From NCBI RefSeq assembly GCF_988242995.1, contig NZ_OZ547043.1: 64,000 nucleotides of DNA; one strand, 5' to 3'. Under the pieces are notes generated by a model. It had not been told where the DNA came from and did no database searches. It worked only from the letters and a program-made list of their open reading frames with translations. Both the position numbers and the translations under genes were made by a program. Positions 19,288 to 37,981 of the stretch are shown here, one piece after another. How positions within the stretch are numbered: position 1 is the first letter of the stretch; every line of letters begins with the position of its first letter.

Positions 19288-22200
19288 ATGATTGAATGGA
19301 TTATTCGTCGCTCGGTGGCGAACCGTTTTCTGGTACTGATGGGCGCGTTGTTTCTGAGTATCTGGGGCACCTGGACCATCATTAACACGCCAGTGGATGC
19401 GCTGCCGGATCTCTCCGATGTGCAGGTGATTATTAAAACCAGCTATCCCGGTCAGGCACCGCAAATCGTTGAAAATCAGGTGACTTATCCGCTAACCACC
19501 ACCATGTTGTCGGTGCCTGGCGCGAAGACTGTGCGCGGTTTCTCGCAGTTTGGCGACTCTTATGTGTATGTCATTTTCGAAGATGGCACTGATCCGTACT
19601 GGGCGCGTTCGCGGGTGCTGGAGTACCTCAACCAGGTACAGGGTAAGCTCCCTGCGGGAGTCAGCGCCGAGCTGGGGCCAGATGCCACGGGTGTTGGCTG
19701 GATCTATGAATATGCACTGGTGGATCGCAGCGGTAAGCACGATCTTGCCGATTTACGCTCATTGCAGGACTGGTTTCTCAAATATGAGCTGAAAACCATT
19801 CCTGACGTTGCGGAAGTGGCGTCGGTAGGCGGTGTGGTGAAAGAGTATCAGGTGGTTATCGATCCTCAGCGTCTGGCGCAATATGGCATCAGTCTCGCCG
19901 AAGTAAAAAGCGCGCTGGATGCTTCAAACCAGGAAGCGGGCGGTTCGTCGATCGAATTGGCGGAAGCGGAATATATGGTGCGCGCCAGCGGCTATCTGCA
20001 AACGCTCGACGACTTTAATCACATCGTTTTAAAAGCCAGTGAAAATGGCGTGCCCGTTTATCTGCGCGATGTTGCGAAGGTCCAGATTGGCCCGGAGATG
20101 CGCCGGGGCATTGCCGAACTAAACGGCGAAGGCGAAGTGGCGGGCGGGGTGGTGATCCTGCGCTCCGGCAAAAACGCCCGAGAAGTAATCGCCGCCGTGA
20201 AGGACAAACTGGAAACGCTGAAAAGCAGTCTGCCGGAAGGCGTGGAGATAGTTACAACATACGATCGCAGCCAGCTCATTGACCGCGCCATCGACAACCT
20301 CAGCGGCAAGTTGCTGGAAGAGTTTATTGTGGTGGCGGTAGTCTGTGCGCTGTTTCTCTGGCATGTGCGCTCGGCGCTGGTGGCGATTATTTCGTTGCCG
20401 CTGGGGTTGTGTATTGCTTTTATTGTCATGCACTTTCAGGGACTGAACGCCAATATTATGTCGCTGGGCGGTATTGCTATTGCCGTCGGGGCGATGGTCG
20501 ATGCCGCTATCGTCATGATCGAGAATGCGCATAAACGGCTGGAAGAGTGGCAGCACCAGCATCCTGACGCCACGCTGGATAATAAAACGCGCTGGCAGGT
20601 GATCACCGATGCATCTGTTGAAGTGGGGCCGGCGCTGTTTATCAGTCTGCTGATTATCACGTTGTCGTTTATCCCGATCTTCACCCTGGAAGGGCAGGAA
20701 GGGCGTCTGTTTGGCCCGCTGGCGTTCACCAAAACGTATGCGATGGCGGGTGCGGCGCTGCTGGCGATCGTAGTGATCCCTATCCTGATGGGCTACTGGA
20801 TCCGTGGCAAAATTCCGCCGGAAAGCAGTAACCCGCTCAATCGCTTTTTGATTCGTGTTTATCATCCGCTGTTGCTGAAAGTACTGCACTGGCCGAAAAC
20901 CACGCTGCTGGTGGCGGCGCTTTCGGTGCTGACGGTTCTCTGGCCGCTCAATAAAGTTGGCGGGGAATTTTTACCGCAGATCAATGAAGGCGACTTGTTG
21001 TATATGCCATCGACGCTGCCGGGGATTTCCGCAGCAGAGGCGGCGAGTATGCTGCAAAAAACCGACAAGCTGATTATGAGCGTACCTGAAGTGGCGCGGG
21101 TATTTGGCAAAACCGGGAAAGCGGAAACCGCCACCGATTCTGCTCCGCTGGAGATGGTAGAAACGACCATCCAGCTTAAGCCGCAGGATCAGTGGCGGCC
21201 AGGCATGACGATGGACAAAATCATTGAGGAACTGGATAACACCGTGCGTCTGCCGGGGCTGGCGAATCTGTGGGTGCCGCCAATTCGTAACCGTATCGAT
21301 ATGCTCTCAACCGGCATTAAAAGCCCCATCGGCATTAAAGTTTCCGGCACTGTGCTGGCGGATATCGACGCGATGGCGGAGCAAATTGAAGAAGTGGCGC
21401 GAACGGTGCCAGGCGTAGCTTCTGCGCTTGCCGAGCGTCTGGAAGGTGGGCGCTATATCAACGTTGAGATTAACCGTGAAAAAGCCGCGCGTTACGGTAT
21501 GACGGTGGCGGATGTGCAATTGTTTGTGACATCTGCGGTGGGCGGGGCGATGGTTGGCGAAACGGTGGAAGGGATTGCCCGTTATCCAATTAATCTGCGT
21601 TATCCGCAAAGCTGGCGCGATAGTCCGCAGGCGCTGCGCCAGTTGCCGATTCTGACGCCGATGAAGCAGCAAATCACCCTGGCAGACGTGGCTGACGTTA
21701 AAGTCTCTACCGGACCGTCGATGCTGAAAACCGAGAATGCGCGCCCGACGAGCTGGATTTATATCGATGCCCGCGATCGTGACATGGTGTCGGTGGTTCA
21801 CGATTTGCAAAAAGCGATAGCTGAAAAAGTGCAGTTAAAACCGGGCACCAGCGTGACATTCTCCGGGCAGTTCGAGCTACTGGAGCGCGCCAACCATAAG
21901 CTGAAACTCATGGTGCCGATGACGCTGATGATCATCTTCGTGCTGTTGTATCTGGCGTTCCGTCGGGTGGGCGAAGCGTTGCTGATTATCAGCAGCGTAC
22001 CGTTTGCGCTGGTGGGCGGCATCTGGTTGCTGTGGTGGATGGGCTTTCATCTTTCCGTGGCGACGGGCACCGGTTTTATTGCCCTTGCCGGGGTCGCCGC
22101 CGAATTTGGCGTGGTGATGCTGATGTATTTACGTCACGCCATAGAGGCCGAGCCGTCGTTGAATAATCCGCAAACATTCAGCGAGCAGAAGCTGGATGAG

Positions 22201-22431
22201 GCGTTATATCACGGCGCGGTCCTGCGCGTGCGCCCGAAAGCGATGACGGTGGCAGTGATTATCGCCGGTCTGCTGCCGATTCTGTGGGGAACGGGGGCTG
22301 GTTCAGAGGTGATGAGCCGGATTGCCGCACCGATGATTGGCGGCATGATCACCGCACCTTTGCTGTCGCTGTTTATTATCCCGGCGGCGTATAAGCTGAT
22401 GTGGCTGCACCGACATCGGGTACGGAAATAA
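19288..22431 (+). CDS. cusA: Copper/silver efflux RND transporter CusA, 1047 aa
   Basis: ORF track full-length match, [27 protein letters not shown]... Confidence 0.98.
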
Positions 22432-22532
22432 AAGCAGGATACCCGGTTTAACCGTGTGGATTGTGTCTTGCGACGATGGGCACTAAATGTTAAAAGGTGC
22501 CCCTCAACAAAAAAGACACACAGGGGAAAGGC

Positions 22533-23909
22533 GTGAAAAACGCGTCAACCGTATCGGAAGATACTGCGTCGAATCAAGAGCCGACGCTTCATCGCGGATT
22601 ACATAACCGTCATATTCAACTGATTGCGCTGGGTGGCGCAATTGGTACTGGTCTGTTTCTTGGCATTGGCCCGGCGATTCAGATGGCGGGTCCGGCTGTA
22701 TTGCTGGGCTACGGCGTCGCCGGGATCATCGCTTTCCTGATTATGCGCCAGCTCGGCGAGATGGTGGTCGAAGAGCCGGTATCTGGTTCATTTGCCCACT
22801 TTGCCTATAAATACTGGGGACCGTTTGCGGGCTTCCTCTCTGGCTGGAACTACTGGGTGATGTTCGTGCTGGTGGGAATGGCAGAGCTGACCGCTGCGGG
22901 CATCTATATGCAGTACTGGTTCCCGGATGTTCCAACGTGGATTTGGGCTGCCGCCTTCTTTATTATCATCAACGCCGTTAACCTGGTGAACGTGCGCTTA
23001 TATGGCGAAACCGAGTTCTGGTTTGCGCTGATAAAAGTGCTGGCAATCATCGGTATGATCGGCTTTGGCCTGTGGCTGCTGTTTTCTGGTCACGGTGGCG
23101 AGAAAGCCAGTATCGACAACCTCTGGCGCTATGGCGGTTTCTTTGCCACCGGCTGGAATGGACTGATTTTGTCGCTGGCGGTAATTATGTTCTCTTTCGG
23201 CGGTCTGGAGTTGATTGGGATTACTGCCGCTGAAGCGCGCGATCCGGAAAAAAGCATCCCTAAAGCAGTGAATCAGGTGGTGTATCGCATCCTGCTGTTT
23301 TATATCGGTTCACTGGTGGTTTTACTGGCACTCTATCCGTGGGTGGAAGTGAAATCCAACAGTAGCCCGTTTGTGATGATTTTCCATAATCTCGACAGCA
23401 ACGTGGTAGCTTCTGCGCTGAACTTCGTCATTCTGGTGGCATCGTTATCGGTGTATAACAGCGGGGTTTATTCTAACAGTCGGATGCTGTTTGGCCTTTC
23501 TGTGCAGGGTAATGCGCCAAAGTTTTTGACTCGCGTCAGCCGTCGCGGTGTGCCGATTAACTCGCTGATGCTTTCCGGAGCGATCACTTCGCTGGTGGTG
23601 TTAATCAACTATCTGCTGCCGCAAAAAGCGTTTGGTCTGCTGATGGCGCTGGTGGTAGCAACGCTGCTGTTGAACTGGATTATGATCTGCCTGGCGCATC
23701 TGCGTTTTCGCGCGGCGATGCGACGTCAGGGACGTGAAACACAGTTTAAGGCGCTGCTCTATCCGTTCGGCAACTATCTCTGCATCGCCTTCCTCGGCAT
23801 GATTTTGCTGCTGATGTGCACGATGGATGATATGCGCTTGTCAGCGATTCTGCTGCCAGTGTGGATTGTATTCCTGTTTGTAGCGTTTAAAACGCTGCGT
23901 CGGAAATAA
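22533..23909 (+). CDS. pheP: Phenylalanine-specific permease PheP, 458 aa (GTG start)
   Basis: ORF track; start placed at GTG encoding (M)KNASTVSEDTASNQ, as remembered for PheP. Confidence 0.93.
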   Translation: MKNASTVSEDTASNQEPTLHRGLHNRHIQLIALGGAIGTGLFLGIGPAIQMAGPAVLLGYGVAGIIAFLIMRQLGEMVVEEPVSGSFAHFAYKYWGPFAGFLSGWNYWVMFVLVGMAELTAAGIYMQYWFPDVPTWIWAAAFFIIINAVNLVNVRLYGETEFWFALIKVLAIIGMIGFGLWLLFSGHGGEKASIDNLWRYGGFFATGWNGLILSLAVIMFSFGGLELIGITAAEARDPEKSIPKAVNQVVYRILLFYIGSLVVLLALYPWVEVKSNSSPFVMIFHNLDSNVVASALNFVILVASLSVYNSGVYSNSRMLFGLSVQGNAPKFLTRVSRRGVPINSLMLSGAITSLVVLINYLLPQKAFGLLMALVVATLLLNWIMICLAHLRFRAAMRRQGRETQFKALLYPFGNYLCIAFLGMILLLMCTMDDMRLSAILLPVWIVFLFVAFKTLRRK

Positions 23910-23950
23910 GGCATTCACGCCGTATCCGACAAAATGATGTCAACCATCCG

Positions 23951-23987
23951 AAACCGCTCTCATCCATTCGATAAGAGCGGTTTTTTT
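23951..23987 (+). terminator. Rho-independent terminator after pheP (hairpin CCGCTCT...AGAGCGG followed by TTTTTTT)
   Basis: Inverted repeat plus 7-T run read from sequence. Confidence 0.65.
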
Positions 23988-23989
23988 AA

Positions 23990-25285
<1,296 letters not shown>

Positions 25286-25344
25286 TTATGCAAATCAGGA
25301 GAATCTGAGGGGAAATAGCCGGGCAGATGCCCGGCAAGAGAGAA

Positions 25345-25998
25345 TTACACTTCGGTTAAGGTGATGTTTTGCGGCAGACGAGATTTCGGCAGCGTAGCGT
25401 TAAAATCTTCAACGCTGTGATGACCCACCGGAACAACTACCAGACTGGTGTAGCCTTTCTCTTTCAGACCAAATTCTCCATCGAGGATTGCGGCGTCAAA
25501 ACCTTCGATGGGTACCGCGTCCAGACCCAGCGCCGCCACGCCGAGCAGGAAGTTGCCGACGTTGAGATAAACCTGTTTTGCCATCCACTCTGCATCATCA
25601 TGCAGATCTTTACGGTGCATATCGGCGAAGAACTTGCGACCTTTATCGTTCGCGGCTTTCGCTTCCGGCGTGGCAAAGCGGCCATCGGCATCTTCCTGGT
25701 CAACAACCAGCTTCAGCCAGGCATCGTCCATCGCGGTTTTTGCACAGAACACCACAACGTGCGAGGCATCAAGCATTTTACGCTCGTTGAACACGTAATT
25801 ACCGGCAGCGGATTTGGCAACACGCGCTTTACCTTCTTCCGTGCTGGCAACAATAAAATGCCACGGCTGGGAGTTGGTGCTGGATGGGCTGTATTGCAGG
25901 AGAGTTTTGATCTGCTCGGCCTGTTCCGGGGTTAGTTTTTTGCTGGCATCAAATGCCTTAGTGGAATGACGCTTTAAGGCGACAGAAATGATATCCAT
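25345..25998 (-). CDS. nfsB: Oxygen-insensitive NAD(P)H nitroreductase NfsB, 217 aa
   Basis: ORF track [31 protein letters not shown]... Confidence 0.97.
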
Positions 25999-26076
25999 AA
26001 AGACTCCATGTGAAAGTAATTTTGCGTGCCAGCAGATTACAAGGATCGAGATGAAATGGTAAGCGAGAAAAATGCG

Positions 26077-26460
26077 CTATTGATTTACGGTTGAGTAAGG
26101 ACGCAGTCGTTTTTGATCGCGTTTAGCCAGACCATCAACCACCAGATTCCACGAATCGTTGATCAGATCGCGAAGTAACGCTTCGGAGATTTCCTCGCCG
26201 GGATACACCGAAATCCAGTGCTTTTTATTCATGTGATACCCTGGCTTGATGCTTGGGTATATTTGCTGATTTAGCAGGGATTTTTGTGGATCGGACTTCA
26301 GATTGATAAAGGGGACGCCGCGCAGCTCCGACGACAGCATAAAAATCTTGCCGCCAATTTTAAAAACATCGAACTCCGGGCCAAAAGGCCAGCAAAGCTC
26401 GACAAAGGGTAACTCAAGGGCCAGGCGTTTCGCCGTTTCGTGCAGTGATTGCTTATCCAT
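26077..26460 (-). CDS. ybdF: Uncharacterised protein YbdF (DUF419)
   Basis: ORF track; start moved to internal [13 protein letters not shown] (ATG 26460, AAGGAA RBS); track ORF is over-extended into ybdJ. Confidence 0.85.
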
Positions 26461-26524
26461 AAACGTTCCTTTAGGCGAAGGAGAATAAGCAAAGTATGCC
26501 GCGAAGTTCGGCGATAATCGACGT

Positions 26525-26773
26525 TTAATCCGCCAGCGAGAACCAGCGTCGCCAGATAAAGCGCAGAACAAAATACTCAATAGCGCCCAGCACTAAAAAC
26601 CACAGACAAAACAATAAAGTGTAAAGCTGGCTAAGATCCATCAGATGGAACGTGGTCACCAGTTTTTGTGCCAGCGTCAGCCCCAATGCGGGGGCGGGAA
26701 GCAGCAGGCAAGAGAGGAAAGCCATCAGCAAAATGCCTGCTGCGGTGGTCAAGGTTTCTAAAGGGTGTTTCAT
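26525..26773 (-). CDS. ybdJ: Small inner-membrane protein YbdJ, 82 aa
   Basis: ORF track [31 protein letters not shown]... Confidence 0.85.
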
Positions 26774-26838
26774 AACATTGTTAAATGTAAGTTAAAACAC
26801 CATTGTCAGGGATATTCTTCTGTAAGGCAATTCCCGAC

Positions 26839-27966
<1,128 letters not shown>

Positions 27967-28254
27967 TTATGTTGGCGTTTTCTATTCAGTATAGAAGTGG
28001 GAGCGACTGGGCGAGATGCGGAAGTTCTGGAATGTTTCTTTTTTTTGGTGATGGTGAACTGATTGTGACTGAAGAAGTTTGGCTACTTCTGCAATGTGAC
28101 AAGTTATGGCAGAGCTGGCTGGTGGCGAAGAATTTTGACGATTGAGGCATGCAGAAAAAAACGGGTTCAGCTTCAGTTGATCAAATGAGGAGTGAGAAGT
28201 CCGAAACAGGACTCGCTGTATAAATAAACAGCTATTTTGCTGAGGAAGGGTAAG

Positions 28255-28320
28255 ATAACGGCGGGTGCCTGAAGCTTTCCGGTTTCAGGTTTACTCTGAG
28301 GTCTGGAAAGATGAAGCCCC
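28255..28320 (-). ncRNA. Predicted Sok-like antisense RNA for hok copy 1 (position inferred from hok/sok architecture)
   Basis: Inference only: antisense to the hok leader / mok start region; no promoter verified. Confidence 0.25.
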
Positions 28321-28409
28321 AGGAGATATTTCTATCAACCCTGGGGCTGCCACTCCAAACCCAAACAATTTGGATGGTAGTCCCTTCTTCGCATGGAGGC
28401 AATATAAAC

Positions 28410-28562
28410 ATGCTGACGAAATATGCCCTTGCGGCAGTCATAGTGCTGTGTTTGACGGTGCTGGGATTTACGCTTCTGGTCGGAGACTCGCTGTGTGAGT
28501 TTACGGTGAAGGAACGTAATATTGAGTTTAAGGCTGTTCTCGCTTACGAACCGAAGAAGTAG
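28410..28562 (+). CDS. hokE: Hok-family toxin (HokE-like), 50 aa, copy 1
   Basis: [50 protein letters not shown]; GGAGG RBS; in-frame upstream mok-like extension in ORF track (28311). Confidence 0.8.
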
Positions 28563-28757
28563 CCGTTGTGCGGGGAGTAATCCCCGCATATCCGGTTGTC
28601 AGGTCAGGGTGGTAAGGCACCTGTTTTACACTTTCGCCCGCGGTCAGCAATGGCTGCGGGCGATTTCGTTTTACGAGCAATAACGAGTGTTGCCAACAGA
28701 AGTCCGAAACAGGATTTACTGTATAAATAAACAGTTATTTTGCTAAGGAAGGGTAAG

Positions 28758-28823
28758 ATAACAGCGGGTGCCTGAAGCTTTCCGGTTTCAGGTTAACTCT
28801 GAGGTCTGGAAAGATGAAGCCCC
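28758..28823 (-). ncRNA. Predicted Sok-like antisense RNA for hok copy 2 (position inferred)
   Basis: Inference only, by symmetry with copy 1. Confidence 0.2.
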
Positions 28824-28912
28824 AGGAGATATTTCTATCAATCCTGGGGCTGCCACTCCGAACCTCAACAACTCGGATGGTAGTCCCTTCTTCGCATGGA
28901 GGCAATATAAAC

Positions 28913-29065
28913 ATGCTGACGAAATATGCCCTTGTGGCAGTCATAGTGCTGTGTTTAACGGTGCTGGGATTTACGCTTCTGGTCCGCGACTCGCTGTGTG
29001 AGTTTACGGTAAAGGAACGTAATATTGAGTTTAAGGCTGTTCTCGCTTACGAACCGAAGAAGTAG
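28913..29065 (+). CDS. Hok-family toxin (HokE-like), 50 aa, copy 2
   Basis: [50 protein letters not shown]; differs from copy 1 at two residues. Confidence 0.8.
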
Positions 29066-29186
29066 CCGTTGTGCGGGGAGTAATCCCCGCATATCCGGTT
29101 GTCAGGTCAGGATGGTAAGGCACCTGCTTTACACTTTCGCCCGCGGTCAGCATTGGCTGCGGGCGAATCGCTCCGGGTATTGTCAA

Positions 29187-29816
29187 TTAATCGTGTTGGT
29201 ACAGCGTTATGACTATCTTTTCTTTTATCTGCCAGTGCACAGCAAACTGCTCATCCTCTAGTCGAATGATGATCTGCTGTTTATTCCAGCTAATTATCTG
29301 ATAATCCAGAAAACCTTGAGCGGCCTGTATCTTGCTTGCCTTAAATGCGCTCTCTTTGGCGGAAAATGCCAGTGTCAGCGCCAGAGAAAAGGTTAAACCG
29401 CATTCTGCGAGTCGCTCGTGTTCTGCTAGTGTAATAATGTTGTCTGTCAATTCTCTTGCGGTTTGTACAGAGAAAATCTCTTCGATATCAATGCCAATCG
29501 GTTGACGAGATACCACGGCTAATGCCGTAGTCCCACAGTGACTAATGCTGCCGTATACCCCCGCAGGCCACACAGGTTGGCGTAGCTCGCCGATTGCGGG
29601 CACACATTTATAGCCATATTCCCGCAGCGCATAAACTGCAGCGATCCGTCCGGCTAAATGCTCTGTTTTACGTTTACGTCCAGCGTGTTGCAGTTGCGCG
29701 TAGTGTGGCAGCCAGAGTAAATCCTGCTCACAAAAACTCGCCGGATCAAACTCAACAAAATGCAGCGTATGTCCTGCAAAGGGGAGGGAGGTATGCGTAG
29801 TTTTCATGTCGACCAT
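29187..29816 (-). CDS. entD: Enterobactin synthase phosphopantetheinyl transferase EntD, 209 aa
   Basis: ORF track; start moved to MVDMKTTHTSLPFAGHTLHF (alternative ATG 9 bp downstream); track ORF over-extended across a REP element. Confidence 0.9.
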   Translation of the reverse strand: MVDMKTTHTSLPFAGHTLHFVEFDPASFCEQDLLWLPHYAQLQHAGRKRKTEHLAGRIAAVYALREYGYKCVPAIGELRQPVWPAGVYGSISHCGTTALAVVSRQPIGIDIEEIFSVQTARELTDNIITLAEHERLAECGLTFSLALTLAFSAKESAFKASKIQAAQGFLDYQIISWNKQQIIIRLEDEQFAVHWQIKEKIVITLYQHD

Positions 29817-29907
29817 ATTAGAGAATGATGACAAACGCAAAACTGCCTGATGCGCTACGCTTATCAGGCCTACGTGGTCCTGCAATGTATTGAATTGGCA
29901 AGATTTT

Positions 29908-29945
29908 TGTAGGCCGGATAAGGCATTCACGCCACATCCGGCATG
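29908..29945. repeat. REP (repetitive extragenic palindromic) element between fepA and entD
   Basis: GTAGGCCGGATAAGGCATTCACGCCACATCCGGCATG matches the REP consensus. Confidence 0.55.
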
Positions 29946-29981
29946 AATTACGCGCACTTTGTCAACAATCTGACGTTAGCA

Positions 29982-32222
29982 TCAGAAGTGAGTATTAATG
30001 CTCATATACCACGTACGTCCCGGCTCGTTATAGGTATACGCCCCGGCACCGGCGATATAGTTGGCTCCTGCCAGATCGCCCGTGGTCTGGGCATTACCCG
30101 CACGCCACAAACGTTTGTCGAACAGGTTGTCCACGCCGCCGGTCAGACTGACATTCTTCGTCACATCCCACGTCGCGCTCAGGCCTACAATGCTGTACGG
30201 GCTGATTTCTTTGGTTTCCGGTCCAACCGCTGGCTGACCTTTATAGTTGTACTTCTTCGGCTGCTGCTTGCCGTACCAGGTGAAGGTTGTTTGCATCGAC
30301 AAATCTTCCCGTGCCTGCCAGCTCAGCGTTGAGTTCAACGTATACTCCGGGATGATCGACAAACGGTCGCCCGTGGTTTTGTTTTCACTCTTCAGCATAT
30401 AAGTGATGTTATTGGTCCACATCACCGTTTCGCTAACCGGTACGTTTAACGATCCTTCCAGACCTTCAACCACCGCTTTCGGTACGTTATCCCACTGATA
30501 GAGATCGGTGCCGACTGCGTTTTGCCCTACAGCCACATAGCCCGCTTCAATCTTATTGCGATAATCGTTGCGGAACCAGGTGACGCCCGCCAGCCAGCCG
30601 TCGCGTTTGAACTCCAGGCCAATCTCCTTGTTGATACTGGTTTCCGCTTTCAGGTCATCATTACCTTGCAGATAGCAGCCGCCCGCGCTGGCATAGCAGC
30701 CCTGACCTTTACTGTAGAGAATGTAGTTTGGGTTAGTCTGGTACAGACTCGGCGCTTTATAAGCACGGGCAATGCCCATTTTCAGCGTGAAGTCATCGCC
30801 TAAACCTTGCGATATGTTTAGAGCCGGACTCCAGTTATTGCCAACAATGCTGTGATGATCGAAACGCAGCCCCGGCGTTACGATGGTGCTGTCAGTCAGC
30901 TCCATATTGTTTTCGGCAAACAGCGAGAAAATTTCTGCTTTTGAATACGGGCTACGGTCTGTCGCACTCACGCCATCAATAGCACCGCCGGTATTCGTCC
31001 CGGTGAGCGCCTGGGTGTTGGAACTTAAATCCTTCATCCGCTGCTGATTCCACTCCGTACCCAGCGTCAGCGTCTGGTTAACGAGGAAATCAATCGGCAG
31101 GTTAACTTCGCTGTGCAGCATCACGTCATCGAGATCGATATCGACGAAATCCTGTGTCGCTTTTTCGTTAAATTTCCCTTCGGTACCGCCCGCCAGACCT
31201 TCCGGAATACGCGAGTTACGGGTGTGTTCGTACTGCACCCAGTTGCTGGTGGTCACGCCGTTATCCCAGCCGCCGTTCCATGTCAGCGAGTAGTTCTGGC
31301 GATACAGACGGTTGGTTTCATCGCCATATTTCGAGCGGGTATAGGAGTCAGAGTTGGTGTTCTGGGTGTCGCCCGCATACAGGTTACCCTGGCGGCTGTA
31401 GCCCGCTTCCAGTTCGAGTGATTGCAGAGGCGCGAAGTCCCAGCGCACCACGCCATTAATATCTTTGTTAATTACCCCTTCGCGCCCGGCTGGTAACGTC
31501 GTGGCATACGTTCCGGCACGCGCGGACTGATGGCCCTGGTTGATATCCCACGCGTCAGCCTGGGTTTTGTCGAGGTTGCCATACAAGCGGAAGCTGAATT
31601 CGTCGCCCAGCGGACCGGTCAGGCTGAAGTTGGTGCGTTTAGTGGCACCTTCCTCTTTATGTTCTGGCGCATTGAAATAAGCGTCCCAGGAGCCGTGCCA
31701 CTCACCACTGCCTTTTTTGGTAATGATGTTAACCACGCCGCCCGCCGCGCCGTTGCCATAACGCGCAGCTGCCGGACCACGCAGAACTTCAATACGTTCA
31801 ATCATTTCAGGTGGCACCCAGGAAGTATCACCACGGGTATCGCGCTCGCCACGCCAGCCCTGACGCACCGAGTTACGGCTGCTTACCGGTTTGCCGTCAA
31901 TCAAAATCAGCGTGTTTTCCGGACCCATGCCGCGAATATCAATCTGGCGGTTATTACCACGCTGACCACTGGTGGAGTTGCCGGTCAGGTTAACGCCTGG
32001 CATGGTACGGATGATCTCCGACACATCGCGGGCAACCGGGTTTTTGCGGATTTCATCTGCGGTGATGGTCGAAACGCCAGGCGCCTGCAAGTTCTGCTCG
32101 GCGGCGGTAACGACAATGGTATCGTCATGTGAAACAGGAGTATCGGTCGGCTCTTGTGCCTGCGCTACCCCATAAATCCCCAGATTGACCAACAAGGCCA
32201 GGGAATGAATCTTCTTGTTCAT
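29982..32222 (-). CDS. fepA: Ferric enterobactin TonB-dependent outer membrane receptor FepA, 746 aa
   Basis: ORF track; start moved to MNKKIHSLALLVNLGIYGVAQA (signal peptide), codon 21 of the track ORF. Confidence 0.95.
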   Translation of the reverse strand: MNKKIHSLALLVNLGIYGVAQAQEPTDTPVSHDDTIVVTAAEQNLQAPGVSTITADEIRKNPVARDVSEIIRTMPGVNLTGNSTSGQRGNNRQIDIRGMGPENTLILIDGKPVSSRNSVRQGWRGERDTRGDTSWVPPEMIERIEVLRGPAAARYGNGAAGGVVNIITKKGSGEWHGSWDAYFNAPEHKEEGATKRTNFSLTGPLGDEFSFRLYGNLDKTQADAWDINQGHQSARAGTYATTLPAGREGVINKDINGVVRWDFAPLQSLELEAGYSRQGNLYAGDTQNTNSDSYTRSKYGDETNRLYRQNYSLTWNGGWDNGVTTSNWVQYEHTRNSRIPEGLAGGTEGKFNEKATQDFVDIDLDDVMLHSEVNLPIDFLVNQTLTLGTEWNQQRMKDLSSNTQALTGTNTGGAIDGVSATDRSPYSKAEIFSLFAENNMELTDSTIVTPGLRFDHHSIVGNNWSPALNISQGLGDDFTLKMGIARAYKAPSLYQTNPNYILYSKGQGCYASAGGCYLQGNDDLKAETSINKEIGLEFKRDGWLAGVTWFRNDYRNKIEAGYVAVGQNAVGTDLYQWDNVPKAVVEGLEGSLNVPVSETVMWTNNITYMLKSENKTTGDRLSIIPEYTLNSTLSWQAREDLSMQTTFTWYGKQQPKKYNYKGQPAVGPETKEISPYSIVGLSATWDVTKNVSLTGGVDNLFDKRLWRAGNAQTTGDLAGANYIAGAGAYTYNEPGRTWYMSINTHF

Positions 32223-32379
32223 TGTTTTATTCCTGCATTTTTGCCACGAATTGCAACTGTCGGGCATGGTCGTCATCAACACGACGCATCCCGCTACCGC
32301 GAAAACCTTTGATCCTGAAAGACACGCAGTGCAGTTGGTTAATTAATGTCCGCGCTTCCCACGGCGCGCCATTACGCTA

Positions 32380-32425
32380 TTGCAAATGCAAATAGTTATC
32401 AATAATATTATCAATATATTTCTGC
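32380..32425. promoter_or_regulatory. Fur-box region in the divergent fepA/fes promoter (AATAGTTATCAATAATATTATCAATA)
   Basis: AT-rich near-palindromic hexamer repeats resembling GATAATGATAATCATTATC. Confidence 0.5.
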
Positions 32426-32464
32426 AATCAATGAAAAATTGCACAGTAAACATGGGGTTATGGT

Positions 32465-33667
32465 GTGACGGCGTTAAAAGTAGGAAGTGAGAGCTGGTGG
32501 CAGTCGAAACATGGCCCGGAATGGCAGCGTCTGAATGACGAAATGTTTGAGGTCACTTTCTGGTGGCGTGATCCCCAAGGTTCTGAAGAATACTCGACGA
32601 TAAAGCGGGTATGGGTCTACATCACTGGTGTGACCGATCACCATCAGAACAGCCAGCCCCAGTCGATGCAGCGAATTGCAGGCACCAACGTCTGGCAGTG
32701 GACGACACAGCTCAATGCCTACTGGCGCGGCAGCTACTGCTTTATTCCCACCGAACGCGATGACATTTTTTCTGCACCATCCCCCGATCGCCTCGAATTA
32801 CGTGAAGGCTGGCGAAAACTATTACCCCAGGCGATAGCCGATCCGCTGAATCCACAAAGCTGGAAAGGCGGGCGAGGGCACGCTGTTTCTGCACTCGAAA
32901 TGCCGCAAGCGCCTCTGCAACCGGGTTGGGATTGTCCGCAAGCGCCAGAAACACCTGCCAAAGAAATTATCTGGAAAAGTGAACGGTTGAAGAATTCACG
33001 CCGTGTATGGATTTTTACCACCGGCGATGCAACAGCAGAAGAACGCCCGCTGGCAGTTTTGCTCGATGGCGAATTTTGGGCGCAAAGTATGCCCGTCTGG
33101 CCTGTGCTGACTTCGCTGACCCATCGTCAGCAACTTCCTCCCGCCGTGTATGTGTTGATCGACGCTATCGACACCACGCACCGTGCCCACGAACTGCCGT
33201 GTAATACGGATTTCTGGCTGGCAGTACAGCAAGAGTTATTACCCCTGGTGAAAGCTATTGCCCCTTTTAGCGATCGCGCCGATCGCACCGTGGTCGCCGG
33301 GCAGAGTTTTGGTGGGCTTTCTGCGCTGTATGCCGGACTGCACTGGCCTGAACGCTTTGGCTGTGTATTAAGCCAGTCAGGATCGTACTGGTGGCCGCAT
33401 CGGGGCGGGCACCAAGAGGGCGTGTTACTTGAACAGCTAAAAACTGGTGAAGTTAGCGCCGAAGGTCTGCGCATTGTGCTGGAAGCGGGTGTTCGCGAGC
33501 CGATGATCATGCGGGCCAATCAGGTGCTGTATGCGCAATTACACCCCATAAAAGAATCCATTTTCTGGCGTCAGGTTGACGGCGGACATGATGCGCTTTG
33601 TTGGCGCGGTGGCTTGATGCAGGGGCTAATCGACCTCTGGCAACCACTTTTCCATGACAGGAGTTGA
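32465..33667 (+). CDS. fes: Enterobactin esterase Fes (GTG start, 400 aa; alternative ATG start at 32543 gives 374 aa)
   Basis: ORF track MTALKVGSESWWQSKHGPEWQRLNDEMFEV... Confidence 0.9.
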   Translation: MTALKVGSESWWQSKHGPEWQRLNDEMFEVTFWWRDPQGSEEYSTIKRVWVYITGVTDHHQNSQPQSMQRIAGTNVWQWTTQLNAYWRGSYCFIPTERDDIFSAPSPDRLELREGWRKLLPQAIADPLNPQSWKGGRGHAVSALEMPQAPLQPGWDCPQAPETPAKEIIWKSERLKNSRRVWIFTTGDATAEERPLAVLLDGEFWAQSMPVWPVLTSLTHRQQLPPAVYVLIDAIDTTHRAHELPCNTDFWLAVQQELLPLVKAIAPFSDRADRTVVAGQSFGGLSALYAGLHWPERFGCVLSQSGSYWWPHRGGHQEGVLLEQLKTGEVSAEGLRIVLEAGVREPMIMRANQVLYAQLHPIKESIFWRQVDGGHDALCWRGGLMQGLIDLWQPLFHDRS

Positions 33668-33669
33668 AT

Positions 33670-33888
33670 ATGGCATTCAGTAATCCCTTCGATGATCCGC
33701 AGGGAGCGTTTTACATTTTGCGCAATGCGCAGGGGCAATTCAGTCTGTGGCCGCAACAATGCGCCTTACCGGCAGGCTGGGACGTTGTGTGTCAGCCGCA
33801 GTCACAGGCGTCCTGCCAGCAGTGGCTGGAAGCCCACTGGCGTACTCTGACACCGACGAATTTCACCCAGTTGCAGGAGGTGCAATGA
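33670..33888 (+). CDS. ybdZ: MbtH-like protein YbdZ, 72 aa
   Basis: ORF track; start set at MAFSNPFDDPQGAFYILRN; stop overlaps entF start (ATGA). Confidence 0.9.
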   Translation: MAFSNPFDDPQGAFYILRNAQGQFSLWPQQCALPAGWDVVCQPQSQASCQQWLEAHWRTLTPTNFTQLQEVQ

Positions 33889-36800
33889 GCCAGCATTTAC
33901 CTTTGGTCGCCGCACAGCCTGGCATCTGGATGGCAGAAAAACTGTCGGATTTACCCTCCACCTGGAGCGTGGCGCATTACGTTGAGTTAACCGGAGAGGT
34001 TGATGCGCCATTACTGGCCCGCGCGGTGGTTGCCGGATTAGCGCAAGCAGATACGCTGCGGATGCGTTTTACGGAAGATAACGGCGAAGTCTGGCAGTGG
34101 GTCGATGATGCGCTGACGTTCGAACTGCCAGAAATTATCGATCTGCGTACCAACATTGATCCGCACGGTACTGCGCAGGCATTAATGCAGGCGGATTTAC
34201 AGCAAAATCTACGTGCCGACAGCGGCAAACCGCTGGTCTTTCATCAGCTCATTCAGGTGGCAGATAACCGCTGGTATTGGTATCAGCGTTATCACCATTT
34301 GCTGGTCGATGGCTTCAGTTTCCCGGCCATTACCCGCCAGATCGCCAATATTTACTGCGCATGGCTGCGTGGCGAACCAACGCCTGCTTCGCCGTTTACG
34401 CCTTTCGCTGATGTCGTGGAAGAGTACCAGCAATACCGCGAAAGCGAAGCTTGGCAGCGTGATGCGGCATTCTGGGCGGAACAGCGTCGTCAACTGCCAC
34501 CGCCCGCGTCACTTTCTCCGGCACCTTTACCGGGGCGCAGCGCTTCGGCAGATATTTTGCGCCTGAAACTGGAATTTACAGACGGGGAATTCCGCCAGCT
34601 GGCTACGCAACTTTCAGGTGTGCAGCGTACCGATTTAGCACTTGCGTTGGCGGCTTTGTGGCTGGGGCGATTGTGCAACCGCATGGACTACGCTGCCGGA
34701 TTTATCTTTATGCGTCGACTGGGCTCGGCGGCGCTGACGGCTACCGGACCCGTGCTCAACGTTTTACCGTTGGGTATTCACATTGCGGCGCAAGAAACGC
34801 TACCAGAACTGGCAACCCGACTGGCGGCTCAACTGAAAAAAATGCGTCGCCATCAACGTTACGATGCCGAACAAATTGTCCGTGACAGCGGGCGAGTGGC
34901 AGGAGAGGAGCCTCTGTTCGGTCCGGTACTCAATATCAAGGTATTTGATTACCAACTGGATATTCCTGGTGTTCAGGCGCAAACCCATACCCTGGCAACC
35001 GGTCCGGTTAATGACCTTGAGCTGGCCCTGTTCCCGGATGAACACGGTGATTTGAGTATTGAGATCCTCGCCAATAAACAGCGTTACGATGAGCCAACGT
35101 TAATTCAACACGCTGAACGCCTGAAAATGCTGATTGCCCAGTTCGCCGCGGATCCGGCGCTGTTGTGCGGCGATGTCGATATTATGCTGCCAGGTGAATA
35201 TGTGCAGCTGGCGCAGATCAACGCCACTCAGGTTGAGATTCCAGAAACCACGCTGAGCGCGCTGGTGGCGGAACAGGCGGCAAAAACACCGCATGCTCCG
35301 GCGCTGGTTGATGCGAGTTACCAGTTTAGCTATCGGGAAATGCGCGAGCAGGTGGTGGCGCTGGCGAATCTGCTGCGTGAGCGCGGCGTTAAACCAGGCG
35401 ACAGCGTGGCGGTGGCGCTACCGCGCTCGGTCTTTTTGACTCTGGCGCTACATGCAATTGTTGAGGCTGGTGCGGCCTGGTTACCGCTGGATACCGGCTA
35501 TCCGGACGATCGCCTGAAAATGATGCTGGAAGATGCGCGTCCGTCGCTGTTAATCACCACCGACGATCAACTGCCGCGCTTTGCCGATGTTCCAGATTTA
35601 ACCAGCCTTTGCTATAACGCCCCGCTTACACCGCAGGGCAGTGCGCCGCTGAAACTTTCACAACCGCACCACACGGCTTATATCATCTTTACCTCTGGCT
35701 CCACCGGCAGGCCGAAAGGGGTAATGGTCGGGCAGACGGCTATCGTTAACCGCCTGCTTTGGATGCAAAACCACTACCCGCTTACAGGCGAAGATGTCGT
35801 TGCCCAAAAAACGCCGTGCAGTTTTGATGTCTCGGTGTGGGAGTTTTTCTGGCCGTTTATTGCCGGGGCTAAACTGGTGATGGCTGAACCGGAAGCGCAC
35901 CGCGATCCGCTCGCTATGCAGCAATTCTTTGCCGAATATGGCGTAACGACCACGCACTTTGTGCCGTCGATGCTGGCGGCATTTGTTGCATCGCTGACTC
36001 CGCAAACCGCTCGCCAGAATTGCGCGACGTTGAAACAGGTTTTCTGTAGTGGTGAGGCCTTACCCGCTGATTTATGCCGCGAATGGCAACAGTTAACCAG
36101 CGTGCCGTTGCATAATCTATATGGCCCGACGGAAGCGGCGGTAGATGTCAGCTGGTATCCGGCTTTTGGCGAGGAACTGGCAGAGGTGCGCGGCAGTAGT
36201 GTGCCGATTGGTTATCCGGTGTGGAATACGGGCCTGCGTATTCTTGATGCGATGATGCATCCGGTGCCGCCAGGTGTGGCGGGTGATCTCTATCTCACTG
36301 GCATACAACTGGCGCAGGGCTATCTCGGACGCCCCGATCTGACCGCCAGCCGCTTTATTGCCGATCCTTTTGCCCCAGGTGAACGGATGTACCGTACCGG
36401 AGACGTTGCCCGCTGGCTGGATAACGGCGCGGTGGAGTACCTCGGGCGCAGTGACGATCAGCTAAAAATTCGCGGGCAGCGTATCGAACTGGGCGAAATC
36501 GACCGCGTGATGCAGGCGCTGCCGGACGTTGAACAGGCCGTGACCCACGCCTGCGTTATTAACCAGGCTGCCGCAACGGGAGGCGATGCGCGTCAGTTGG
36601 TTGGGTATCTGGTGTCGCAATCAGGCCTGCCGTTGGATACCACTGCATTGCAGGCGCAGTTGCGCGAAACATTGCCACCGCATATGGTGCCCGTGGTTCT
36701 GCTGCAACTTCCGCAGTTGCCGCTTAGCGCCAACGGCAAGCTGGATCGCAAAGCCTTACCGTTGCCTGAACTGAAGGCACAAGCGCCGGGGCGTGCGCCG

Positions 36801-37766
36801 AAAGCGGGCAGTGAAACGATTATCGCCGCGGCATTCTCGTCGTTGCTGGGTTGTGACGTGCAGGATGCCGATGCTGATTTCTTCGCGCTTGGTGGTCATT
36901 CGCTACTGGCAATGAAATTGGCAGCGCAGTTAAGTCGGCAGTTTTCCCGTCAGGTGACGCCGGGGCAGGTGATGGTCGCATCAACCGTCGCCAAACTGGC
37001 AACGATTATTGATGGTGAAGAAGACAGCTCCCGGCGCATGGGATTCGAAACCATTCTGCCGTTGCGTGAAGGTAATGGCCCGACGCTGTTTTGTTTCCAT
37101 CCGGCCTCCGGTTTTGCCTGGCAGTTTAGCGTGCTTTCGCGTTATCTCGATCCACAATGGTCGATTATTGGCATTCAGTCGCCGCGCCCTCATGGCCCCA
37201 TGCAGACGGCGGCAAACCTGGATGAAGTCTGCGAAGCGCATCTGGCAACGTTACTTGAACAACAACCGCACGGCCCTTATTACCTGCTGGGGTATTCGCT
37301 GGGCGGTACGCTGGCGCAGGGCATTGCGGCGCGACTGCGTGCCCGTGGCGAACAGGTGGCATTTCTTGGCTTGCTGGATACCTGGCCGCCAGAAACGCAA
37401 AACTGGCAGGAAAAAGAGGCTAATGGTCTGGACCCGGAAGTGCTGGCGGAGATTAACCGCGAGCGCGAGGCCTTCCTGGCGGCACAACAGGGAAGTACTT
37501 CAACGGATTTGTTTACCACCATTGAAGGCAACTACGCTGATGCTGTGCGCCTGCTGACGACTGCTCATAGCGTACCGTTTGAAGGTAAAGCGACGCTGTT
37601 TGTTGCTGAACGCACACTTCAGGAAGGTATGAATCCCGAACGCGCCTGGTCGCCGTGGATTGCGGAGCTGGATATCTATCGTCAGGATTGTGCGCATGTG
37701 GATATTATCTCTCCAGGGGCGTTTGAAAAAATTGGGCCGATTATTCGCGCTACGCTAAACAGGTAA
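33885..37766 (+). CDS. entF: Enterobactin non-ribosomal peptide synthetase EntF (C-A-PCP-TE), 1293 aa
   Basis: ORF track; start moved to MSQHLPLVAAQPGIWMAEKL (ATG 33885, GGAGG RBS); track ORF over-extended. Confidence 0.97.
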   Translation: MSQHLPLVAAQPGIWMAEKLSDLPSTWSVAHYVELTGEVDAPLLARAVVAGLAQADTLRMRFTEDNGEVWQWVDDALTFELPEIIDLRTNIDPHGTAQALMQADLQQNLRADSGKPLVFHQLIQVADNRWYWYQRYHHLLVDGFSFPAITRQIANIYCAWLRGEPTPASPFTPFADVVEEYQQYRESEAWQRDAAFWAEQRRQLPPPASLSPAPLPGRSASADILRLKLEFTDGEFRQLATQLSGVQRTDLALALAALWLGRLCNRMDYAAGFIFMRRLGSAALTATGPVLNVLPLGIHIAAQETLPELATRLAAQLKKMRRHQRYDAEQIVRDSGRVAGEEPLFGPVLNIKVFDYQLDIPGVQAQTHTLATGPVNDLELALFPDEHGDLSIEILANKQRYDEPTLIQHAERLKMLIAQFAADPALLCGDVDIMLPGEYVQLAQINATQVEIPETTLSALVAEQAAKTPHAPALVDASYQFSYREMREQVVALANLLRERGVKPGDSVAVALPRSVFLTLALHAIVEAGAAWLPLDTGYPDDRLKMMLEDARPSLLITTDDQLPRFADVPDLTSLCYNAPLTPQGSAPLKLSQPHHTAYIIFTSGSTGRPKGVMVGQTAIVNRLLWMQNHYPLTGEDVVAQKTPCSFDVSVWEFFWPFIAGAKLVMAEPEAHRDPLAMQQFFAEYGVTTTHFVPSMLAAFVASLTPQTARQNCATLKQVFCSGEALPADLCREWQQLTSVPLHNLYGPTEAAVDVSWYPAFGEELAEVRGSSVPIGYPVWNTGLRILDAMMHPVPPGVAGDLYLTGIQLAQGYLGRPDLTASRFIADPFAPGERMYRTGDVARWLDNGAVEYLGRSDDQLKIRGQRIELGEIDRVMQALPDVEQAVTHACVINQAAATGGDARQLVGYLVSQSGLPLDTTALQAQLRETLPPHMVPVVLLQLPQLPLSANGKLDRKALPLPELKAQAPGRAPKAGSETIIAAAFSSLLGCDVQDADADFFALGGHSLLAMKLAAQLSRQFSRQVTPGQVMVASTVAKLATIIDGEEDSSRRMGFETILPLREGNGPTLFCFHPASGFAWQFSVLSRYLDPQWSIIGIQSPRPHGPMQTAANLDEVCEAHLATLLEQQPHGPYYLLGYSLGGTLAQGIAARLRARGEQVAFLGLLDTWPPETQNWQEKEANGLDPEVLAEINREREAFLAAQQGSTSTDLFTTIEGNYADAVRLLTTAHSVPFEGKATLFVAERTLQEGMNPERAWSPWIAELDIYRQDCAHVDIISPGAFEKIGPIIRATLNR

Positions 37767-37781
37767 ATTAATATTATCTAT

Positions 37782-37826
37782 AAACCCATAATTACAGGAA
37801 ATAATTATGGGTTTATCATTTATTTA
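37782..37826 (+). terminator. Rho-independent terminator after entF (AAACCCATAATTA...TAATTATGGGTTT followed by T-rich tract)
   Basis: Perfect 13-bp inverted repeat read from sequence. Confidence 0.65.
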
Positions 37827-37981
37827 ATTTATAAGTTTGGTGGATATTTCTCTTAAATAGAGTGAATGTTGCATTCAGTGGAAGGAATTTACAAACTTCA
37901 GCTTCGGATAATTCTCACCAACTGGTAAAGTGAGCGCCGTGGAGATTTCCCCCTATTGGACTCATTTTCAGGTTATACCCC

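Follow-up and report, generated by a model that had tools for sequence, protein, structure and literature searches.

The region between ybdK and entD in this genome most probably (about 85% by our own estimate) consists of a head-to-tail pair of complete type I toxin-antitoxin cassettes, both hokE/sokE and paralogous to each other, the result of a probably old duplication that is still present in about half of E. coli. The stretch of DNA analyzed, hereafter the window, comprises 64,000 nucleotides of contig NZ_OZ547043.1 (assembly GCF_988242995.1), and all coordinates refer to it. The original prediction, made from the letters of the sequence, was that two tandem, intact hok/sok-type loci lie here, and it stands: both units match the Rfam sok family and both Hok ORFs are intact. 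Judged by synteny and sequence, both units are hokE.

The array is flanked by ybdK (26839-27957) and entD (29187-29807), both on the minus strand. Comparing 28195-28494 with 28698-28997 gave a direct repeat of 94% identity at a spacing of 503 bp, and the full 470-bp units (28195-28664 and 28698-29167) are 95.3% identical, with 22 mismatches and 0 indels. The predicted unit length of ~503 bp corresponds to the measured repeat spacing, which is made up of a 470-bp unit plus a 33-bp spacer. The start of the spacer between the units (28665-28697) is similar to the 3' flank of Citrobacter homologues. IS186 was not found here, as had been claimed; after the hairpin of copy 2, the sequence runs directly to the entD stop at 29187.

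Each unit encodes a Hok peptide of the predicted 50 aa (ORFs at 28410-28562 and 28913-29065), with GGAGG at 28395 and 28898, 10 nt before the respective hok ATG. Identity to K-12 HokE is 100% for HokE1 and 96% for HokE2, and the two peptides differ from each other by A8V and G25R, exactly the A/V and G/R differences noted beforehand. HokE2 matches Pfam HOK_GEF (PF01848) at E = 3.7e-10 over 42/42 model positions, and it is identical to the peptide of copy 2 in strain VCSW7, annotated as WP_000956470.1. No HokE-specific model in the NCBIfam library was reached by either peptide. Their scores were below the cutoffs of the HokA equivalog (NF007290; 47.7 and 53.9 versus 89) and of the Hok family subfamily (NF007279; 38.9 and 44.8 versus 73), which is expected because the peptides are HokE, not HokA. 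Among 30 units compared, the hok ORF is intact in all 30 and carries 15 synonymous and 9 non-synonymous changes; with pN/pS at ~0.20, the Hok peptide is under purifying selection by this sequence measure. The UTRs of these units are more conserved than the synonymous sites of hok. Codon 46 contains the TACG motif for which TadA A-to-I editing of hokE has been reported (PMC5630033, PMC12214031), and this editing codon, along with the UTR elements, is kept across genera. K-12 hokE is transcribed and ~40% edited at Y46 (PMC12214031), and overexpression of HokE is toxic (bioRxiv 10.1101/2025.08.07.668861).

The leader of each unit fully matches model positions 1-157 of Rfam RF01794 ("sok"), which has a gathering score of 59: unit 1 at 28263-28418 (85.4 bits, E = 3.6e-19) and unit 2 at 28766-28921 (81.9 bits, E = 2.9e-18). 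A consensus promoter scan reported no sigma-70 site for hok or sok, and no hok -35 was assigned; therefore, the transcript ends were inferred by homology (Table 1). At 28251-28256, a -10-like TAAGAT is found where K-12 hokC has TATAAT in the alignment. In both MFE folds, nt 1 to 8 of the predicted mRNA pair with AGGCACCU ~350 nt downstream (z = -6.2 for hokE1 and -7.9 for hokE2). The RNAalifold consensus contains this 5'-3' helix for 22/22 homologues from Escherichia, Citrobacter, Klebsiella, Phytobacter, and others, and six pairs of the tac/fbi helix are retained in 21 to 22 of the 22. No covariation was obtainable among these homologues for tac/fbi; because the pairs are nearly invariant, the comparison speaks for conservation, not covariation. 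We predict that both full-length mRNAs close through this tac/fbi-like helix. When the hokE1 RNA is trimmed in silico to end at 28595, its 5' GGG.GC pairs with GCCCC, a pairing also present in the Rfam consensus structure, and the 28343-28384 hairpin forms, so the predicted outcome of 3' trimming is a refolded RNA that carries the Sok-target hairpin. The conserved 3' stem-loops of the original prediction were located in both units: GCGGGGAGTAATCCCCGC after the hok stop codon, and a second hairpin, CGCCCGCGGTCAGCA(A/T)TGGCTGCGGGCG, within 28634-28663 and 29137-29166. The terminal hairpin of the entD-proximal copy is without a U tract in all genomes examined.

The predicted SokE antisense RNAs were given the same distance from hok as the annotated K-12 sokE (b4835), which spans 44 to 103 nt ahead of the hokE ATG. 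The homologous stretch is identical to K-12 at 59/60 positions in copy 1 and 56/60 in copy 2, and SokE2 differs from SokE1 at nt 4, 5, 10, and 28. The putative Sok promoter is invariant in the 30 units, save for one singleton at 28382 in the spacer; a strict consensus promoter scan did not flag this TTGCCT-17-TACCAT site. Within the Sok-target (sokT) stem, A28357G and T28371C together make up a compensatory A-U to G-C change among the 30 units. Faridani 2006 makes no mention of hokE.

Table 1. Features of the tandem hokE/sokE array (window coordinates)
Feature	Position	Strand	Basis
hokE/sokE unit 1 (repeat copy 1)	28195-28664	+	Direct repeat, 503-bp spacing
hokE/sokE unit 2 (repeat copy 2)	28698-29167	+	Direct repeat, 503-bp spacing
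33-bp spacer at junction between units	28665-28697	.	Unit alignment
Predicted full-length hokE1 mRNA, ~410 nt; 5' end inferred	28263-28672	+	Rfam sok start, -10-like site, MFE z = -6.2
tac-like 5' element GGGUGCCU	28263-28270	+	Pairs with 28615-28622 (full-length MFE) and with GCCCC, nt 54-58 (3'-trimmed RNA)
Predicted SokE1 antisense RNA, 60 nt	28307-28366	-	Offset mapping from K-12 sokE (b4835)
Upstream ATG opening 83-aa frame	28311-28313	+	In frame with hok in 10/15 Escherichia units
Sok-target (sokT) stem-loop	28343-28384	+	3'-trimmed fold and Rfam structure
Putative Sok promoter: -35 TTGCCT (28397-28402), 17-nt spacer, -10 TACCAT (28374-28379)	28374-28402	-	Read from sequence
Best mok-like candidate: 12-codon leader from ATG 28374, same frame as hok	28374-28409	+	ATG kept in 19/22 homologous mRNAs
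hok Shine-Dalgarno GGAGG, copy 1	28395-28399	+	Sequence; copy-2 counterpart at 28898
hokE1 CDS, 50 aa, 100% identical to K-12 HokE	28410-28562	+	ORF list and comparison with K-12 locus
TACG at codon 46 (Tyr) of hokE1, published TadA A-to-I editing site	28545-28548	+	Sequence; invariant in 30 units
Post-stop hairpin GCGGGGAGTAATCCCCGC, copy 1; IS186 site in K-12	28570-28587	+	Sequence, K-12 comparison
fbi-like element AGGCACCU, copy 1	28615-28622	+	Pairs with 5' end; helix in RNAalifold 22/22
Intrinsic terminator of copy 1: 13-bp stem, then TTTCGTTTT	28634-28672	+	Terminator scan
Predicted full-length hokE2 mRNA	28766-29166	+	Rfam match 28766-28921, MFE z = -7.9
Predicted SokE2 antisense RNA	28810-28869	-	Same offset mapping as SokE1
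hokE2 CDS, 50 aa, A8V and G25R versus copy 1	28913-29065	+	ORF list, Pfam HOK_GEF
Post-stop hairpin GCGGGGAGTAATCCCCGC, copy 2; intact IS186 target	29073-29090	+	Sequence
fbi-like element of copy 2	29118-29125	+	Pairs with 28766-28773 in MFE
Terminal hairpin of copy 2, without U tract after it (AATCGCTCC)	29137-29166	+	Sequence; unflagged as terminator

The mok-like leader frame of the original prediction is only partly borne out: an 83-aa frame in frame with hok does open at ATG 28311, but homologues do not keep this frame as such. In other Escherichia units, this ATG opens a 22-aa ORF (4/15) or a 62-aa ORF in another frame (1/15), and outside Escherichia the ATG is absent. Given that the frame is shifted in 5/15 Escherichia units and missing from other genera, we consider it an unlikely mok. 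The better candidate starts at ATG 28374, where we found no evident Shine-Dalgarno sequence. Across several genera, the ORF from this position is either fused to hok or ends at an ATGCTGA overlapping the hok start; it reaches the hok start region in 21/22 homologues, the exception being one (L018) in which it stops 14 nt short of the hok ATG. A Shine-Dalgarno sequence plus ATG of the R1/hokC mok type was not found at the homologous site, where GAGG is replaced by GGGG and no start codon follows. On this sequence comparison, the mok element of hokE differs in type from those of R1 and hokC, and its assignment is ambiguous. A search for disrupting leader mutations found none specific to this window.

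We compared the array with the K-12 hokE/sokE locus (b4415/b4835), which is not tandem. As the original prediction stated, MG1655 has a single hokE (b4415) beside IS186; the annotation includes a sokE ncRNA and puts 18 bp between the hokE stop and IS186B. By sequence, the element lies inside the GGGGAGTAATCCCC hairpin, a GGGG-N6-CCCC target 7 nt past the hokE stop codon, and is bordered by a 10-bp target duplication, GGAGTAATCC. K-12 and the window share the ybdK-hokE-entD position, an identical HokE1 peptide, and a leader that is 99% identical. They differ in that the window has two copies without an IS, whereas K-12 has one, in which IS186B parts the post-stop hairpin from fbi and the terminal hairpin. 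Because the 5' part of the K-12 gene is copy-1-like and its 3' part copy-2-like, it looks like a copy-1/copy-2 hybrid. The difference between K-12 and the window would be explained by collapse of the array to one hybrid copy, followed by an IS186 insertion that separated the 3' hairpin from fbi and the terminator.

The tandem junction was detected in 2,507 of 5,426 complete E. coli genomes (~46%) using a blastn junction query, of which single-copy genomes can cover at most ~70%. This count replaced one from megablast with an exact 57-nt junction query, which returned only 125 genomes, because the 28-nt exact word misses diverged junctions. A leader plus CDS query matched 8,366 places in 5,407 genomes, with two places in 32/60 sampled rows (~53%), a rougher upper estimate of the tandem share. 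One E. coli strain has three hokE copies, and tandem pairs also occur in E. whittamii and Escherichia sp. MOD1-EC7003. RefSeq annotates "hokE" twice in tandem genomes. The pairs of O157:H7 strain 8368 and VCSW7, for example, have the same two-gene array, junction spacer, and flanking genes, with both genes named hokE by PGAP; the two Hok peptides of VCSW7 are those of the window. Such RefSeq pairs differ from the window by allelic differences only, the best match to the 1.4-kb region being 98.4%. The observation is therefore correct but ordinary, since the layout is known, occurs in ~46% of complete E. coli genomes, and is already annotated. Genomes with the IS-free two-copy array are roughly as frequent as those with a single copy.

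Local duplication gives rise to hok "islets" (bioRxiv 10.1101/2025.08.07.668861), and the contrast with K-12 alone would imply a recent, strain-specific duplication, as might the direct adjacency and 95% identity of the units. We regard a recent origin as very improbable given the 2,507 E. coli genomes with the junction, the pairs in E. whittamii and Escherichia sp. MOD1-EC7003, and the tendency of copies to cluster by position rather than by genome. In a neighbor-joining (NJ) tree, built from an alignment that took in some flanking bases specific to each position, copy 1s are for the most part clustered apart from copy 2s across species; the exceptions are the copy 2s of Escherichia sp. MOD1-EC7003 and of the GTDB E. 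coli representative, which group with copy 1s. This separation indicates that the duplication of hokE is probably old, and the two-copy array is probably older than the single-copy state. Tandem repeats are sometimes mis-assembled, and nothing specific to the hokE array points that way; with 22 differences between the copies, two amino acids included, and the same layout in thousands of complete genomes, an assembly artefact has next to no probability.

The closest mechanistic model is hok/mok/sok (parB) of plasmid R1. Its toxin is likewise a Hok/Gef peptide, and the hokE leader fits the same Rfam model; the 5'-3' closure of the R1 mRNA with refolding after 3' trimming, predicted here for hokE, and the antisense promoter between the target hairpin and the hok Shine-Dalgarno sequence, putative in hokE, are further likenesses (PMC9841398). 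R1 mok, however, begins 58 nt ahead of hok in a different frame and with its own Shine-Dalgarno sequence (PMC9841398), whereas the only conserved hokE candidate lies 36 nt upstream, in frame, and without one. Moreover, hokE is chromosomal and has no plasmid to stabilize; post-segregational killing by hokE would be an extrapolation from R1. K-12 hokC(gef)/mokC/sokC has a leader and post-stop hairpin homologous to those of hokE, and hokC, like K-12 hokE, is interrupted by IS186 at the homologous hairpin. Annotated mokC is in frame with hokC and shares its stop, the arrangement proposed here for hokE, but it has GAGG and an ATG at the R1-like position; the HokC and HokE peptides are only distantly similar. 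The ldr/rdl, ibs/sib, and zorO/zorP loci also repeat small toxin plus antisense RNA units within one intergenic region and vary in copy number from strain to strain (PMC2887945). Their toxin families and RNA mechanisms differ from those of hokE, and antisense discrimination between copies has been studied there.

Following the R1 mechanism (PMC9841398), the ~410-nt hok mRNA would be made closed and untranslatable via tac/fbi. Slow 3' trimming to the GCGGGGAGTAATCCCCGC hairpin would let the 5' end re-pair with GCCCC and expose the Sok-target hairpin, to which unstable SokE would bind, leading to degradation of the duplex. Once SokE is exhausted, ribosomes would gain access via a short leader frame that most likely begins at the ATGs at 28374 and 28877, which share the hok frame; the Hok then made would depolarize the inner membrane. 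Where TadA edits Tyr46 (TACG) to Cys, toxicity would probably rise.

The chromosomal hokE cassettes may be functional: the peptide is under purifying selection and the RNA architecture is conserved. We give an appreciable minority chance to another reading, that the cassettes are intact in structure but physiologically inert relics, transcribed without chromosomal Hok ever being made, the mok-type entry site being absent or of insufficient strength. The lack of a Shine-Dalgarno sequence plus ATG at the R1/hokC mok position, and of a Shine-Dalgarno sequence at ATG 28374, fits inert cassettes, as does the collapse of the array to one copy, or toleration of IS186, in about half of genomes. Likewise, IS-free chromosomal hokA, hokB, and hokC showed neither post-segregational killing nor activation by rifampicin in the work of Pedersen & Gerdes (1999), as relayed in bioRxiv 10.1101/2025.08.07.668861. 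However, relics would not be expected to retain 30/30 intact ORFs at a pN/pS of ~0.2, UTR elements and a TACG editing codon kept across genera, a leader ORF reaching the hok start region in all homologues but L018, or a peptide that is toxic when expressed. A further and rather doubtful idea is that the two (sometimes three) cassettes are kept as separately controlled toxins, a two-channel module in which each SokE preferentially silences its own mRNA, because the copies have come to differ in SokE nt 1 to 10 and in the target loop that matches them. If so, the array would not be a redundant duplicate. The Sok-target loop is indeed enriched in variation (11/27 columns informative variable versus 24/375 elsewhere; Fisher P = 2e-6), but synonymous sites in hok vary just as densely (15 changes on 37.7 sites), and therefore neutrality suffices. 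We never found an identical loop allele twice in one array, which is not significant under random draws (P = 0.17), and predicted cross-duplexes (-108 to -117 kcal/mol) are still very stable next to cognate ones (-126 kcal/mol). We therefore rejected diversifying selection on the loop.

Overall, the discovery value of the array is small, as hokE/sokE is a described locus and thousands of RefSeq genomes already have its tandem form annotated. In practice, for about half of strains, short reads, probes, or knock-outs directed at "hokE" will encounter a pair of almost identical genes. K-12, the usual reference, would represent a derived condition, its only copy being a hybrid that IS186 has disabled, and its hokE would therefore be unrepresentative for work on chromosomal hok physiology, including persistence, phage defence, and membrane stress.

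The interval between ybdK and entD holds a head-to-tail repeat with a spacing of 503 bp, in which two homologous 470-bp units, separated by a 33-bp spacer, are 95.3% identical (22 mismatches, no indels). Both units matched Rfam RF01794 'sok', a model of the 5' part of the hok mRNA, over its whole length on the plus strand, with scores of 85.4 and 81.9 bits (gathering score 59). The copy-1 peptide is exactly K-12 HokE; the copy-2 peptide carries A8V and G25R and matched Pfam HOK_GEF (E = 3.7e-10). No insertion sequence was found in the window's hokE array. Together with the two ORFs and the stem-loops 3' of each, these results confirm in every detail the original prediction of two tandem, intact hok/sok-type loci that lack IS186 and whose Hok peptides differ at an A/V and a G/R residue. 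Opposite each hok leader, the minus strand has a 69-aa ORF; RefSeq labels the homologues of these ORFs 'hypothetical protein', often with a frameshift or internal-stop flag, and they are probably spurious calls on a structured leader.

Coordinates of the hokE/sokE array and related features
Feature	Copy 1	Copy 2	Strand	Remark
ybdK	26839-27957		minus	one flank of array
Homologous unit	28195-28664	28698-29167		470 bp
Hairpin GCTGTATAAATAAACAG(C/T)	28215-28238	28718-28741		first one called terminator-like by scan
Antisense 69-aa ORF	28232-28441	28735-28944	minus	
Predicted hok mRNA 5' end	28263	28766		taken from Rfam start
Predicted SokE	28307-28366	28810-28869	minus	K-12 sokE coordinates transferred
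Sok-target stem-loop	28347-28373	28850-28876		
Target loop	28359-28369	28862-28872		ACCCAAACAAU (copy 1), ACCUCAACAAC (copy 2)
hokE ORF	28410-28562	28913-29065		50 aa; GGAGG upstream
Post-stop hairpin GCGGGGAGTAATCCCCGC	28570-28587	29073-29090		GGGG-N6-CCCC; intact in both
AGGCACCU, partner of 5' end	28615-22	29118-25		MFE
Terminal hairpin and bases after it	28634-28672	29137-29175		
entD		stop at 29187	minus	other flank of array
K-12 homologous hairpins with IS186				comparison loci L001 2490-2530 (hokE) and L004 (hokC)

The expectation that K-12 has one hokE beside IS186, not a tandem, proved correct by both annotation and sequence: the MG1655 order is ybdK, an annotated sokE ncRNA, a single hokE, IS186B, entD, and fepA. 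By sequence, the insertion point lies within the post-stop hairpin, which starts 7 nt past the hokE stop, with a 10-bp target duplication (GGAGTAATCC), and the IS-excised sequence is exactly the hairpin present twice in the window. IS186A interrupts K-12 hokC at the homologous hairpin. The target preference of IS186 is GGGG-N6/7-CCCC, and the two window hairpins are, judged by sequence, potential targets. The K-12 unit is copy-1-like upstream of the IS and copy-2-like downstream; this is the pattern expected of a single copy left by unequal recombination between two tandem units. The K-12 hokE is a derived state.

A 1.4-kb query retrieved genomes, O157:H7 among them, whose RefSeq annotation has two genes named 'hokE' between ybdK and entD. 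We searched for the tandem junction with a 111-nt query (copy-1 terminator, spacer, and beginning of the following unit), requiring at least 80% coverage, where single-copy genomes can reach at most ~70% match, and detected it in 2,507 of 5,426 complete E. coli genomes (46%); counting hokE 'places', a rougher approach, gave ~53%. A 2026 preprint assigns 10% of Hok genes to 'islets' of 2-6 that arise from local duplication (bioRxiv 10.1101/2025.08.07.668861). Given the junction frequency, the double annotation, and the published islets, tandem hokE is already known and ordinary: a known locus in its common, annotated wild-type form. O157:H7 Sakai has 14 Hok genes by the count of Fozo et al. (PMC2887945). 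E. coli strain 104 carries three tandem units in the ybdK-entD interval (L035, NZ_CP029164.1 4275300-4278300), so arrays range from one to three units; the maximum in one search was four hokE places per genome. Over 20 kb of the window (20000-40000, cusA to entF), the best identity among the 5,426 genomes was only 98.0-98.3%, with entD standing out as particularly diverged (its protein is 83-96% identical to those homologues that were compared); complete genomes sample the source lineage, or this haplotype, poorly.

Among GTDB species representatives, the tandem pair occurs in ybdK/entD context in E. whittamii and an E. coli-labelled genome, and a single copy in E. albertii and Escherichia sp. 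E1V33; in Escherichia sp. MOD1-EC7003 the pair adjoins ybdK, and its locus showed no entD. A neighbour-joining tree was built from 15 units, which carried some position-specific flanking bases; in it copy 1s mostly cluster across genomes, as do copy 2s, and two copy 2s (those of MOD1-EC7003 and of the GTDB E. coli representative) were placed with copy 1s. The duplication probably predates E. coli, with one-copy genomes as secondary collapses. In some genomes, such as E. coli SK1144 (L033 3765-6257), entD does not come next: directly past the copy-2 hairpin (window position 29167) is a breakpoint, beyond which lie two genes for SDR oxidoreductases and one for an ABC transporter permease. A separate tandem pair of hokE-like genes, with a spacing of 522 bp, is present in Klebsiella spallanzanii (L015 1393-2064).

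In the MFE folds of both full-length RNAs (z-scores -6.2 for copy 1 and -7.9 for copy 2), nt 1-8 (GGGUGCCU) pair with AGGCACCU ~350 nt downstream. RNAalifold recovered this closing helix from 22 hokE-like mRNAs of Escherichia, Citrobacter, Klebsiella, Phytobacter, and others, with the pairs kept in 21-22 of the 22; because they hardly vary, this is conservation, not covariation. When trimmed just beyond the post-stop hairpin, the RNA refolds so that GCCCC (nt 54-58) becomes the partner of the 5' end and a 28343-28384 hairpin forms, which is the Rfam RF01794 consensus structure. The predicted refolding is the same as the switch in plasmid R1 from tac/fbi, the helix closing the full-length mRNA, to tac/ucb, the pairing after 3' trimming (PMC9841398). 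After its terminal hairpin copy 1 has TTTCGTTTT, as do Citrobacter homologues (L012, L017). The entD-proximal copy has AATCGCTCC, without a U tract, in the window and in all genomes examined; transcription of copy 2 may therefore run on antisense to entD. The invariant hairpin GCTGTATAAATAAACAG(C/T), then TATTTTG, precedes each predicted mRNA start by about 30 nt and could shield the unit from upstream transcription or belong to the hok promoter.

The mok-like leader that had been proposed is probably the 83-aa frame from ATG 28311. This frame exists but is unconserved: among 15 Escherichia units it reads in frame with hok in 10, is cut short at 22 aa in 4, and lies in a third frame in 1, and the ATG is missing outside Escherichia. 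In R1, mok begins 58 nt ahead of hok and out of frame with it (PMC9841398). At the R1-like position hokE has GGGG and no start codon, whereas K-12 mokC, annotated in frame with hokC, has GAGG and an ATG there. ATG 28374 (28877 in copy 2) is a better mok candidate: 19 of 22 homologues have an equivalent, with its frame fused to hok in 10 and stopping at an ATGCTGA that overlaps the hok start, a coupling arrangement, in 8; in L018 the leader frame stops 14 nt upstream of the hok ATG. In the Citrobacter/Klebsiella homologues (L010-L025) the conserved ATG opens a 12-codon ORF ending at ATGCTGA, and in Escherichia (window 28374-28412) a 4-nt longer spacer puts it in frame, fused to hok. The candidate has no visible Shine-Dalgarno sequence and overlaps the Sok -10.

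An R1-type mechanism is the most likely reading for each unit; our analysis demonstrates its sequence and structure parts alone, and we infer the processing, decay, and killing steps for both units. It is unlikely that the cassettes are inert relics, as the weak mok candidate and the missing copy-2 U tract might suggest, along with IS-free hokA, hokB, and hokC, which gave no plasmid stabilisation and no rifampicin response according to work cited in bioRxiv 10.1101/2025.08.07.668861. In favour of activity stand the conserved RNA architecture, the published toxicity of over-expressed HokE, and purifying selection on the peptide: hok is intact in 30/30 units (17 genomes), with 15 synonymous and 9 non-synonymous distinct changes (pN/pS ~0.20). 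TACG at Tyr46, a published TadA editing site that is ~40% edited in K-12 hokE (PMC5630033, PMC12214031), is invariant.

A promoter-like TTGCCT-17-TACCAT at 28374-28402 is invariant in 30 units bar one spacer singleton; a strict consensus scan called no promoters. Variation in the cassette is confined to one patch, the Sok-target stem-loop, of which the 30 units carry 10 alleles and in which 11 of 27 columns are informative and variable; other non-coding parts are better conserved than synonymous sites. A compensatory A28357G/T28371C change (A-U to G-C) preserves the stem. Copies differed in their allele of this stem-loop in all 12 multi-copy genomes sampled, and the window's two copies differ at 3 of the first 10 nt of SokE. 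Variation in the stem-loop is as dense as at synonymous sites, so neutral drift is enough to account for it. We do not claim insulation between copies, given this density, the kept stem, strong cross-duplexes, and non-significant allele non-identity within arrays. The copy-1 target loop lacks a YUNR motif, and that of copy 2 includes CUCA. In R1, a YUNR U-turn in the target loop accelerates Sok binding; if this effect holds in hokE, the speed of SokE binding could differ between the two copies.
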